A stretch of 5,254 bases of DNA from a virus (Duplodnaviria > Heunggongvirae > Uroviricota > Caudoviricetes), in the IMG/VR virus record IMGVR_UViG_2529293080_000022; one strand, given 5' to 3'. Below are positions 3,001 to 5,254 of this stretch, in pieces. A program made the position numbers. Within the stretch, counting starts at the first letter, position 1. The number at the start of each line of letters is the position of its first letter.

Positions 3001-5254
3001 ACGGATATCCATGTTCGCCGGACTGAATACAAACACATCCTGCTTACCATCCGGTTTTGTGTAACAACCGATATAGTCACCACGCCAGGAATAAGCCACA
3101 ATGGACATCGGGTTAAACTGACTCTGCCACTGTTCTGGTGAAATAATCTTTTCCGTTGCCAGTGCTGTATTACCGTTTACATCAACAGATACCAGACCGT
3201 TTGTCCCGGCATACAGTACGAATCCCTCCATCGCCACCATGCTTCTTCGGCTCAGGCATGCCTGCATGGAAGGAATTCTGGAGCCAGAAATTGTGGAAGG
3301 CGATACACCACTGAACAGATAAGGCTCCCCCTTTGTCGCCACCACCAGTGACGTTCCCAGCGGACAGATAGCCACAATATCTTCTGCCGTCGTGTGACGA
3401 TTCACTTCCGGCCATGCATACGGCAGATACGCTTCCGAAAACATCACTTCATTACCGGCAAACCCGGCAGCAATACCATTAGCCATCAGGCAAAGACCCG
3501 TCATATTCTCCGGTGGCGGCAGGTAATCCCATGTTGCCAGGGAAGGCCCAAGGTTTTTCGTCGGTATTTTGTCCGTGTAACTGAGCACTGACGCATCCAG
3601 TTCAGCCACAAGTAAAAAATCCGCTTCTCCTCCACCTGATGCAGAGCGATAAATCCGGCGACGTTTAATATTGGCATTCTGCAATGGCACCGGAGCCAGC
3701 GTCAGTTGTACCGCAGTCCCCGGAGTACGGAGTGTTACCTCCAGAGACGCCGGACCAGGCGGACCTTCTTCACCATAATCTGAGACAAAGGTTTCAGTAT
3801 AAAACCGGGTTTCGTCATCATTCGGGTTATCGTCAGAAACATCACCGCCCTGCTGAACAGTACAGACAGGAGCTGTCGTCGGCGCGGGGATCCCCAGACG
3901 ATACGATGATGTCGGGTGATTCCCGTCCCCTTTTGTGGCAATAGTCGCATCCGTCACTTTAGGAAAACGCCCGTCAGTGTAGTAAATACGCCCGTGGGGG
4001 TCCTGAGCGATCGGACTGCGGATCACATCCACCACATCCGGCCATGCAAACCAGAAATCGTCACGGTAATGAAAAATTGTTTTTGGCTTAATTGTGAATG
4101 TTTTCTCAACCCCGGATATCTGACGTTCTGGTGTAATAACACCAAACCGGAAATGGCAGTCCTCCGCCAGTACAGCGGAATGCTCGGGCAGCATGGATGT
4201 CACAACGCGCGGCATCATCCCACGCATCGTGGTGATATCGATATAGGGCATAGAAATTCCTTTGACTGCTTCAGGCTTAAAAATCAGGGGATTTATGATG
4301 GAATTCGCTAAAATCGCGATCGGCATCACTGAAACAAAATGCCTTGCATGACATTCTGATGATGACTAAATAACTTCATTGATTATTGCAATTTTCTTTC
4401 GGTTTGGGGGAGCATATTGCTCCCCTTTTTTCACTGCATTATCATTGCCGCTGTAGCAACGAGAAGCATCACTCCGCACACGCAAGATGTTTCACACTCA
4501 CACCATACAGTCCATTTTTCGCCATTCCCGTATACAGAAAGCTATTCACTGTCTTCGTGTGAATTCCCATTTCACTGGCAAGGCGACATCATGTACCCCT
4601 TTCAATTTTTCCAGATTCAGCTGAATAAAACGGCGTCCCTGATACATACTGCGCATTAAATGGCCCAACTGACTATCACAGATTATTAACCAGGATTCTT
4701 TACTATCCAGAATAATCCTGCGATTTTCCGGCATAAAAAACTCTTGAACCAGAATTACACGGCATCCTTCACTCCATCGTATTAACATGTTTATTACTTC
4801 ACTCTCTAATAACCCCCCCTATACATGACAACAAAAACCGGAGCCGGGCTCCGGTTTTTGTGAAGCTGTCGGCTATTTCATCCCGCCAATATTTTCCCAC
4901 GTCCCGTCAGCACGCAGGATTTGCAGCGGTCTTACCACACACTGTATCTGCTTTTTATCTGCATCCAGTATCACCACCTGTGTGATTACCCTGTCCTGCT
5001 CCGGAATAATGCCATTCTCATCTGACTCCAGAATGTCTGCCGGTCCCAGTCGCAGTTGTGCTGTAAGCGACTGCCCGTTTTCACAGTCATCATGCTTTCC
5101 GCAACCGCACAGACTCTGCATAAGCTTTCTCAAAATATTCATGTCATTCTCCTGTTCTGCCTGTATCACTGCCCACTTCATCCAGCCCCTTGACATCCTG
5201 CCACGGCCCGTCACCAAACCTGACCTGCAAATGCTGAAAAAAACCCTGAACCCG

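Follow-up and report, generated by a model that had tools for sequence, protein, structure and literature searches.

Read as its reverse complement, the 5,254-nt stretch of DNA analyzed here (the window) corresponds to the tail region of short-tailed Stx phages of the 933W/Sp5 type; it matches the 933W, Sp5, PA28 and P27 phages at 99.8-100%, with PA28 and P27 being 100% identical. On its minus strand, a spacer separates L0122, a tail-fibre C-terminus gene matching PF06820 (Phage_fiber_C), from the virion-protein gene L0124. The preliminary description gave this spacer as about 540 bp (4330-4872). We extend it to 621 nt (4252-4872), because L0124 most likely starts at ATG 4251, which has an AAGGA ribosome-binding site (RBS) 7 nt upstream: homologues with identity as low as 42% align to this version of the protein from residue 1-4, and alternative modules found upstream of L0124 diverge right up to this ATG. 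The GC content of the spacer is 0.41-0.43, compared with 0.50-0.54 in the flanking genes L0124, L0125 and L0122. Partial matches cut the spacer into modules at ~4431-4468, ~4588 and ~4816, and each segment from 4872 down to 4252 was assigned by homology. The spacer is present in more than 150 phage genomes.

The side of the spacer next to L0122 is occupied by a hairpin at 4831-4861 (ACAAAAACCGGAGCC / GGCTCCGGTTTTTGT), whose arms (4831-4845 and 4847-4861) form a perfect 15-nt inverted repeat. It is predicted to fold with -20 kcal/mol on each strand (z about -5 versus shuffled sequence). Because an A5 run and a T5 run sit within the arms, the structure is symmetric and can be read as a bidirectional intrinsic terminator that ends L0122. 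It was absent from a simple terminator scan, probably because the T-run was counted as stem. The block 4816-4872 is common to many long-tailed Stx1/Stx2 phages (86-98% identity), consistent with a terminator that would travel with the Phage_fiber_C gene. Beyond it lies leftover non-coding DNA (4761-4830, minus strand), which aligns to positions 4348-4420 of the 2B8 locus (L005), upstream of an intact regulator-like gene there. This segment contains a run of C at 4812-4818, read as poly-G on the minus strand; the length of this poly-C tract varies from C7 to C10 among 933W-type loci that are otherwise >99% identical. A minus-strand TTGTCA, earlier pointed out as a weak -35-like hexamer, is present at 4826-4831; it sits among gene remnants and has no support above chance as a functional signal.

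An intact version of the region between this leftover DNA and the L0124 leader is found in other E. coli prophages, where a phrog_6585 gene is followed by a phrog_9340 gene and then by a GC-rich hairpin, often with a YadA-like adhesin gene ahead of this cassette. The phrog_6585 family, found only in E. coli, comprises proteins of 157-180 amino acid residues that combine an N-terminal receiver-like domain with a LuxR-type helix-turn-helix (HTH), and the phrog_9340 product is a membrane protein of 57-60 residues. Translated intact homologues were mapped by tblastn, and their remnants fell into three frames of the window. Remnant A (4588-4764, minus strand) comes from a 2B8-like allele and encodes residues ~23-84 of a phrog_6585 protein, within its receiver-like domain (tblastn E = 8e-34; 93.4% nucleotide identity to 2B8). 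Remnant B (4469-4588, minus strand) belongs to the same gene family and encodes the C-terminal end of the LuxR-type HTH, CRLASEMGIHTKTVNSFLYTGMAKNGLYGVSVKHLACAE followed by the stop codon, in a PhiR12/GER2-like allele (95% amino acid identity, E = 1e-21 in tblastn; 92.6% nucleotide identity to PhiR12_2_star); frame translation places it in a frame different from that of remnant A. Remnant C (4431-4475, minus strand) consists of the last 14 codons and the stop codon (TGA, 4433-4431) of the phrog_9340 gene. Thus, the N- and C-terminal parts retained from phrog_6585 show significant homology in tblastn searches; the continuous frame across the ~156-position profile is gone, since residues ~85-128 are deleted and the C-terminal 39 residues lie in another frame, and the native start (MK[VFL]ILAT...) and its upstream region are not present in the window.

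Remnant C runs directly into a second hairpin (4406-4431), in which GGGGAGCA (4407-4414) pairs with TGCTCCCC (4418-4425) and is followed by T6 at 4426-4431 on the plus strand. The stem has 8-9 base pairs, six of them GC, and was picked up by the terminator scan; its minimum free energy is -16.3 kcal/mol (z = -4.2), and none of 200 shuffled sequences folds as well. The minus-strand stem is stable too (-15 kcal/mol, z -4.8) and is followed by CAAACC with no U-run. Two terminator hairpins at the spacer, the left one with its T-tract on the plus strand only, had been proposed beforehand; both exist, with a stability far above that of shuffled sequence, and the one-sided T-tract is borne out. The left hairpin thus has the features of an intrinsic terminator, a stable GC-rich stem-loop with a U-run directly 3' of it, facing inward on the plus strand, and neither a plus-strand gene nor a promoter-like site was found upstream of it in the window. 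The remaining 154 nt (4252-4405, minus strand) are the leader between hairpin and L0124 start codon. Across the 933W, GER2 and O111 alleles its part 4252-4331 is ~99% conserved and its part 4332-4405 is weakly similar; the whole leader block is swapped for other sequence in L073, L076, L088 and L122-type phages.

Alignment with the intact relatives 2B8, PhiR12_2_star and GER2 reveals three deletions in the window, of ~160, ~112 and ~141 nt. The first (junction at 4756-4769, seen in the pairwise alignment and in blastn blocks) takes the first 22 codons of the regulator-like gene, start codon included, along with its RBS and ~105 nt of upstream sequence, and its site in 2B8 is flanked by the microhomology GGCAT(T/C)CTT. 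The second (~4588) lies inside the regulator-like gene, and the third (~4475) lies in the small membrane-protein gene. We score these segments as deleted in the window rather than inserted in the relatives because their presence gives a single, uninterrupted and conserved reading frame. Two alleles meet at ~4588: nucleotide identity to the 2B8-like allele is 93% on the right of this point and 73% on the left, and identity to the PhiR12/GER2-like allele is 90-93% on the left and ~70% on the right. This supports the earlier suggestion of a recombination junction at which two modules meet. Comparison with related prophages had been named in advance as a check on the functional readings of the spacer, and the deletion scar that it uncovered speaks against them.

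These findings change the status of the open reading frames annotated in the spacer. The 80-residue minus-strand frame (4546-4788) noted in the preliminary description does exist; rather than a chance ORF in low-coding DNA, it is a piece of a gene from a genuine family, a chimera that joins an ATG from former upstream non-coding DNA to remnant A and to an out-of-frame tail of 13 residues (VALPVKWEFTRRQ), and it covers only positions 21-85 of the 156 in the phrog_6585 profile. Remnant A makes up most of the “hypothetical protein” L0123 / ECs_1230, annotated with 62, 80 or 93 residues according to three different starts given to the ORF across records. Could this fragment be a functional stand-alone receiver-like protein, for example a dominant-negative partner of full-length paralogues, several of which occur in EHEC genomes? 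Its frame is open for 80-93 codons, hundreds of phage and genome records annotate it, and it has its own PHROG (phrog_2014) and keeps the most conserved core, including the invariant Asp52 (D52) and the ESWLII motif. However, the native start codon, the RBS and the first beta-alpha unit are missing, and the predicted fold needs both strand 1 and helix 1 of that unit; the start is ambiguous and moves with the hypermutable C7-C10 tract; the C-terminus is out of frame; and the only minus-strand promoter-like match in the promoter scan is internal to the ORF. In one relative, an IS66-family element has inserted into the ORF and generated an 8-bp target duplication, so the remnant is dispensable there. 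We consider a functional fragment highly improbable. Full-length copies of the spacer are all at least 99% identical and so offer no substitution pattern that would speak for or against residual selection on the ORF. Searching the literature for the locus tags ECs1230, L0123, Z1484 and Z1485 turned up no relevant paper.

Two smaller elements proposed in the same region are present, although without support above chance as a gene or as a structural element. The 22-residue plus-strand ORF (MYPFQFFQIQLNKTASLIHTAH) lies in or beside the gene remnants. The inverted repeat 4691-4700 / 4711-4720 is complementary at nine of ten positions; its predicted fold is weak (-7.9 kcal/mol; z -2.6 on the plus and -1.2 on the minus strand), it sits in a coding remnant, and one of its arms carries an extra mismatch in the 2B8 homologue.

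What the intact regulator-like protein was can be approached through its predicted structure. Scanning the intact cassette proteins against Pfam, NCBIfam and PADLOC gave no significant match, the sole trace being EvgA (E = 0.14), and a profile search of the family reached GerE at E = 0.22. The AF2 model (pLDDT 75.7) has NarL/FixJ-type proteins as all of its top 35 PDB matches (FixJ, EvgA, RcsB, StyR, LiaR, DesR, VpsT and DosR), with Foldseek E values from 2.5e-3 to 5e-2, low global TM scores and sequence matches at E > 0.1. A NarL/FixJ-like fold for the ancestral protein is thus moderately supported by the model. With regulators such as EvgA, RcsB and FixJ, phrog_6585 proteins share a predicted beta-alpha receiver-like domain and a four-helix LuxR-type HTH, and in sequence they weakly resemble GerE and the C-terminal part of EvgA. 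Unlike these regulators, they are short (157-180 versus about 200-210 residues), have T-R-N in place of the acidic pair that closes strand 1, match no Pfam or NCBIfam model at threshold and are encoded with no cognate kinase nearby; the copy in the window is reduced still further, to ~60 in-frame residues and an out-of-frame HTH end. We also considered a PsrA/PsrB-type prophage regulator as the identity of the intact gene and rejected it, PsrA and PsrB being of the AraC/XylS type (PMC10877973).

The left hairpin is best understood from its relatives. In every one of them the hairpin comes directly after the stop codon of the gene for the small membrane protein, with the T-run facing that gene, and a homologous hairpin of equal position and orientation is found in GER2, KY203, O111 and PhiR12-type loci. 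In PhiR12_2_star, L026 and L029 the hairpin begins 11 nt past the stop codon of a convergent dinI gene, and in L010 the sequence upstream of it differs right up to the hairpin foot. Judged by this position, the PhiR12-type counterpart is the predicted terminator of dinI, with which the window hairpin shares a GC-rich stem of 7-9 base pairs, a loop of 3-6 nt and a U5-U7 run. The window hairpin differs in having no plus-strand gene or promoter upstream and in facing the 5' end of L0124 from the wrong side, and tblastn with PhiR12 DinI found no dinI remnant near 4330-4405. Since the hairpin ends a convergent dinI gene in PhiR12-type prophages, it appears to have been inherited with the cassette, in agreement with the suggestion, made beforehand, of inheritance from a rearranged context.

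Whether the left hairpin still does something is a separate matter. The homologues differ by one compensatory change (C:G to T:A); with three stem variants and this single compensatory pair, they are too few for covariation statistics. The stem is otherwise strictly conserved across alleles with diverged flanks, which hints that it may be kept for a reason. With its U-run directed inward, the hairpin could stop only transcription that comes into the cassette from its downstream side and runs antisense to the late genes, and it would presumably terminate or insulate in that direction. It could be kept as an insulator that halts antisense transcription, for example from promoters beyond lom or from read-through of pL around the circular genome, before it runs back into the tail-fibre and cargo genes, or as the 3' end of a short cis-antisense RNA that covers the L0124 leader and tunes expression of this virion protein; we regard retention for either function as unlikely. 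Alternatively, the structure might act on the sense (minus) strand, as a 5'- or 3'-terminal stabilizer or processing stop of the late mRNA around L0124, the plus-strand T-run being incidental. The minus-strand stem folds equally well, it is invariant where the flanks differ, and L063 and L098 types keep the stem although their run is interrupted (AAAGAAA), which makes for a weaker plus-strand terminator. Against such a role, PhiR12-type prophages carry the hairpin in front of unrelated DNA with no L0124, and other L0124 lineages do without it, so that a sense-strand function also seems doubtful.

A small RNA is a further possibility at this hairpin. A plus-strand transcript of ~50-110 nt ending at 4406-4431 would be partly antisense to the L0124 leader and could act in cis or as an Hfq-type regulator on L0124 and tail gene expression, or on a host target. 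Besides a canonical intrinsic terminator with U6 on the plus strand and a stem conserved across alleles, the region offers a U/A-rich single-stranded stretch just before the terminator, a weak TTGCAT-N17-TAAATA pair read from the sequence at 4343-4371, and a match to the Rfam family RsaOG over 4325-4432. This match was the only one in the Rfam search, in which no family, AsxR and AgvB included, reached its gathering score; at 27.5 bits versus a gathering score of 50 (E = 0.33) it remains sub-threshold, and its score is driven by the terminator. Moreover, the promoter scan found no sigma-70-like plus-strand site in 4100-4406, the putative -10 hexamer is not kept in the GER2 and O111 alleles, the 75 nt ahead of the hairpin are weakly similar between alleles, and the hairpin element is missing from many L0124-bearing phages. 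None of the 63 Hfq orphan sites of O157 Sakai falls at 1283-1288 kb (PMC4104026 Table S2; one data set, non-inducing). The cassette origin fully accounts for both the presence and the orientation of the hairpin, and we find a small RNA improbable.

Known EHEC prophage small RNAs make a useful comparison here. AsxR and AgvB (PMC4104026), the Pas sRNAs (bioRxiv 10.64898/2026.05.13.724894) and 24B_1 (PMC4426718) are likewise short, terminator-ended RNAs of Stx-phage late regions, sometimes convergent with late genes; one of them, AsxR, is known elsewhere in Sp5 as a short convergent sRNA of this kind (PMC4104026). The window element differs in lacking an Rfam match at gathering score, an Hfq-CRAC report and a conserved promoter. 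Nor does it appear to be one of these RNAs itself: by their description (bioRxiv 2026.05.13.724894) the Pas sRNAs lie in other contexts, PasB being found in 24 phage genomes versus more than 150 for the spacer, and 24B_1 lies by its published coordinates beyond lom, outside the window. The earlier proposal that the spacer may encode a small RNA or a small protein is therefore unsupported: the scans found no plus-strand promoter and no Rfam family, no Hfq-bound sRNA is reported at the locus, and its ORFs are gene fragments or their antisense.

In our view the spacer is very probably a decayed two-gene cargo (“moron”-like) cassette, at once a deletion scar and a recombination junction. The site between the tail-fibre gene and L0124 has variable content: GER2 and KY203 carry an adhesin, a regulator and a small ORF, O111 strains a 181-residue protein and cor, and the four types with a swapped leader unrelated sequence. 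Extra DNA of variable content between structural genes, with a GC content unlike that of its flanks, is what is described for the morons and cargo cassettes that lambdoid phages carry in their late operons (Juhala et al. 2000, cited in PMC4104026). The window cassette is also bounded by terminator hairpins and has mosaic breakpoints at module edges. It departs from morons in being non-functional, with deletions cutting short both genes and no cassette promoter detected, and in having a distal hairpin that faces inward and is not a sense-strand terminator, there being no U-run on that strand. The cassette would once have occupied the variable site between the tail-fibre genes L0121/L0122 and L0124 in short-tailed Stx phages. 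In the 933W lineage, the microhomology-flanked deletion of ~160 nt removed its promoter-proximal region, RBS and first 22 codons; the ~112-nt deletion inside the regulator gene joined two diverged alleles and shifted the frame; and the ~141-nt deletion removed codons 1-46 of the small gene. The outcome is a start-less, frame-broken pseudogene, the largest open piece of which came to be mis-annotated, with the left hairpin as the cassette's own terminal hairpin. We infer that nothing in the spacer is still functional besides the L0124 leader and RBS.

So read, the spacer is a commonplace graveyard of genes in which no RNA or protein gene lies hidden, and L0123, ECs_1230, vBEcoSP27_70/71 and phrog_2014 would be pseudogene fragments rather than phage genes or candidates for small proteins or sRNAs. 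The mis-annotation affects hundreds of Stx-phage and EHEC records, and its correction is mostly of housekeeping value. The interval from the tail-fibre genes to L0124 emerges as a cargo hot spot in Sepvirinae. The uncharacterized intact cassette of other E. coli prophages may merit its own study: adhesin, atypical NarL/FixJ-like regulator and small membrane protein may together constitute a prophage virulence or regulatory module of pathogenic E. coli, with the 933W copy as its dead remnant. In KY203, where this cassette is intact, one promoter-like site lies upstream of the adhesin gene, a site count that is not above the shuffled expectation.

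Read as its reverse complement, the window is a tail region of the type found in short-tailed Stx phages (Sepvirinae, Traversvirus), with minus-strand genes in the order L0122, L0123, L0124, L0125, L0126, L0127 and lom (933W-type names). In megablast searches, 316 phage records matched positions 4250-4950, 153 of them covering at least 80% of the query; identity was 100% for PA28 and P27 and 99.9% for 933W, VT2-Sakai (Sp5), Min27 and others. The spacer, a low-coding interval between L0122 (a tail-fibre C-terminus, Phage_fiber_C) and L0124, is present whole in 267 of 5426 complete E. 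coli genomes, with at least 99% identity in nearly all; its O157 Sakai counterpart is NC_002695.2 1287133-1287754, between ECs_1229 and ECs_1232. Its GC content is 0.41-0.43 versus 0.50-0.54 in the flanking structural genes, and the cargo at this site differs among lineages; moron sites of lambdoid late operons typically show both features. At the distal end, L0126, L0127 and lom (1-1350) and the L0127-lom intergenic region (355-444) are also markedly AT-rich (GC 0.35-0.44 versus 0.50-0.54 in L0124 and L0125), as would fit additional moron-like cargo where the tail operon ends.

The spacer was previously delimited as 4330-4872 (approximately 540 bp). The longest L0124 open reading frame begins with GTG at 4329, the start annotated for 933W. 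The most likely start is ATG 4251, which has an AAGGA ribosome-binding site and is used in the P27 annotation: alignments with L0124 homologues as distant as 42% identity begin at residue 1-4 of this version, and in other lineages unrelated DNA extends right up to this ATG. The spacer is therefore corrected to 621 nt (4252-4872). L0124 itself matches positions 319-859 of 862 in phrog_511 ("internal virion protein"); a Pfam search gave no match.

Distant relatives align to parts of the spacer only: in sensitive blastn searches, query positions 1-179/213, 217-337, 337-621 and 565-621 each matched different phages or prophages. In phage 2B8, an intact 180-aa gene directly follows the L0122-like gene and its terminator, and in PhiR12_2_star, GER2, E. 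coli KY203 and strain 2013C-3033 a YadA-like adhesin gene is followed by an intact 157-167 aa homologue and then by a 57-60 aa gene. Three-frame minus-strand translation and tblastn located three gene remnants in the spacer, all on the minus strand. Remnant A (4764-4588) corresponds to residues 23 to ~84 of the 2B8-type protein (tblastn E = 8e-34); remnant B (4588-4469), in a different frame, to residues 129-167 of the PhiR12-type protein (CRLASEMGIHTKTVNSFLYTGMAKNGLYGVSVKHLACAE and stop; 95% identity, E = 1e-21); and remnant C (4475-4431) to the 3'-terminal 14 codons of the small gene, ending in GVMLLVATAAMIMQ and stop. Comparison with related prophages, proposed in the preliminary description as a way to see whether the spacer is a conserved module boundary, revealed by pairwise alignment with 2B8 and PhiR12/GER2 three deletions, of ~160 nt at 4760/4761, ~112 nt at ~4588 and ~141 nt at ~4475. 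The first, whose 2B8 counterpart is flanked by the microhomology GGCAT(T/C)CTT, removed the start codon, ribosome-binding site, 22 codons and ~105 nt upstream. The junction at ~4588 also unites two diverged alleles: on its right, identity is 93% to 2B8 and ~70% to PhiR12 and GER2, and on its left 90-93% to PhiR12/GER2 and 73% to 2B8. The allele switch and the deletions bear out the earlier suggestion of a recombination junction. With remnants and deletions mapped, each base of the spacer is therefore assigned: from 4872 to 4252 it comprises the L0122 terminator, leftover upstream DNA, remnants A, B and C, a hairpin, and a 154-nt leader between that hairpin and ATG 4251. The spacer is a cargo cassette turned pseudogene, of a kind that phage mosaicism ordinarily produces.

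The gene that gave rise to remnants A and B belongs to a family found only in E. coli. Its members are all annotated as "hypothetical protein", and neither Pfam nor NCBIfam has a model for them. The corresponding PHROGs entry is phrog_6585 (156 positions; function unknown), of which the window ORF spans positions 21-85 only; the truncated form has a separate entry, phrog_2014. An AlphaFold2 model built from a 25-member alignment (mean pLDDT 75.7) shows a receiver-like domain of beta-alpha type and, after it, four helices. The top 35 Foldseek matches in PDB were all of the NarL/FixJ type (FixJ, EvgA, RcsB, StyR, LiaR, DesR, VpsT, DosR; E 2.5e-3 to 5e-2), and a profile search of PDB sequences retrieved GerE and LuxR-family HTH proteins at E 0.2-0.8. 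On the basis of the model and these matches, we propose with moderate confidence that the protein combines a receiver-like domain with a LuxR-type HTH. In the intact proteins the acidic pair is replaced by T-R-N, and D52 is invariant. Identity with PsrA/PsrB was ruled out, these being AraC-type. Several E. coli prophages (loci L007:3181-5175, L004:4181-5986, L010:2824-5073 and L006:544-2363) carry an intact three-gene cassette for a YadA-like trimeric autotransporter adhesin, the phrog_6585 protein and a membrane protein of 57-60 aa (phrog_9340). In Sepvirinae this cassette precedes L0124; in long-tailed prophages it lies at the end, adjoining dinI or host genes. The practical value of these results lies in correcting the annotation and in pointing to the intact cassette in other prophages.

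The hairpin at 4406-4431, described earlier as having its T-tract on the plus strand only, is indeed so built: 4407-4414 pairs with 4418-4425, followed by T6 at 4426-4431. A terminator scan called it on the plus strand (-16.3 kcal/mol, z -4.2); on the minus strand the stem is identical, with no U-run after it. A pattern search across all the loci compared found three variants, GGGGGAGCAtatTGCTCCCC-T6 (933W type), GGGGAGCAtgtTGCTCCCC-T5-7 (GER2 and O111 types) and GGGGAGTtaacttACTCCCC-A-T6 (PhiR12 type), separated by one compensatory C:G to T:A change. In every case the stop codon of the small gene directly precedes the hairpin and the T-run is on the opposite strand. In PhiR12_2_star and two further loci (L026, L029) the hairpin lies 11 nt past the stop of a convergent dinI gene, which would make it the dinI terminator there. 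In strain 2013C-3033 the far-side DNA is unrelated right up to the hairpin foot; in O111 strains the cargo is swapped for cor and a 181-aa gene, yet the hairpin persists and the small gene survives as a frameshifted stub; the element is missing altogether from several lineages that have L0124. Because it always follows the small-gene stop, occurs in dinI contexts, persists in O111 and is absent from other L0124 lineages, the hairpin is evidently the terminal element of the cassette, inherited with it. The proposal that it was inherited from a rearranged context thus holds, and its orientation, the same in all relatives, was not created by rearrangement within this phage. From its sequence it is predicted to stop only transcription entering the cassette from the L0124 side, and it may still have this role here. 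In the O111 and NCCP15648 prophages (L008:3126-3272, L009:3126-3290) the spacer site is occupied by a hypothetical gene of 181 aa together with cor, which encodes a phage exclusion lipoprotein, and the frameshifted stub beside the retained hairpin is unannotated. This arrangement indicates that recombination within the small gene replaced the cargo.

A small RNA, suggested for the spacer, was not supported. No promoter-like site was found on the plus strand upstream of this hairpin, and 4332-4405 is poorly conserved between alleles. The Rfam search returned no family at threshold, its sole match being RsaOG, at 27.5 bits versus a gathering score of 50. This match to a staphylococcal sRNA (4325-4432, plus strand, E = 0.33) is driven by the terminator and the preceding AU-rich stretch and is almost certainly due to chance. 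For O157 Sakai, 63 orphan Hfq-binding sites are reported, none of them at 1283-1288 kb (PMC4104026, Table S2; offset between genome versions checked). The microRNA-size 24B_1 of Phi24B is encoded antisense to late genes in the 428-bp lom-vb_24B_43 gap (PMC4426718), so antisense transcription can arise in that part of Stx phages. By that description its locus would lie past the lom end of the window (lom, 43-354), outside position 1, and its transcription would run in the window's plus direction.

A small protein was similarly not supported. The weak ORFs reported earlier exist, but the 80-aa minus-strand one is a gene fragment matching remnant A: its native start is lost, it ends in a 13-residue out-of-frame tail, and it has been annotated with three starts (62, 80 or 93 aa). 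The 80- and 93-aa versions are one C apart in a homopolymer tract at 4812-4818 (G on the coding strand), which reads C7, C8, GC9 or GC10 among 933W-type phages otherwise >99% identical; one extra C brings an upstream ATG in frame, so that L0123 is 93 aa long in 933W and Sakai, against 80 aa in the window. At the corresponding place 2B8 has a C5 that is interrupted. This variation could be slippage or sequencing noise, and with the gene dead the tract serves no obvious purpose. In one IMG/VR viral contig (L061) the remnant ORF is interrupted by an IS66-family element with a duplicated 8-bp target (4743-4750); the insertion (L061:307-3005) is ~2.7 kb, with ORFs matching DDE_Tnp_IS66, TnpB_IS66 and HTH_Tnp_1. 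The 22-aa ORF on the plus strand runs antisense to remnant A, with its AAGG straddling the second deletion junction.

As described earlier, the spacer contains an inverted repeat at 4691-4720 (9/10 positions) and a TTGTCA hexamer near 4826-4831; the repeat is weak, with a further mismatch in one arm in 2B8. The hairpin at the L0122 end pairs 4831-4845 with 4847-4861, a 15-nt inverted repeat without mismatch; it folds at -20 kcal/mol on both strands and, with its A5 and T5 flanks, is predicted to be a symmetric, bidirectional terminator. The ~50-nt block containing it (4816-4872) is 86-98% identical in many long-tailed Stx1, Stx2 and cdt phages, such as Stx2a_WGPS6, JLK-2012, BP-4795 and cdtI, which suggests that Phage_fiber_C genes carry a portable module at their end.
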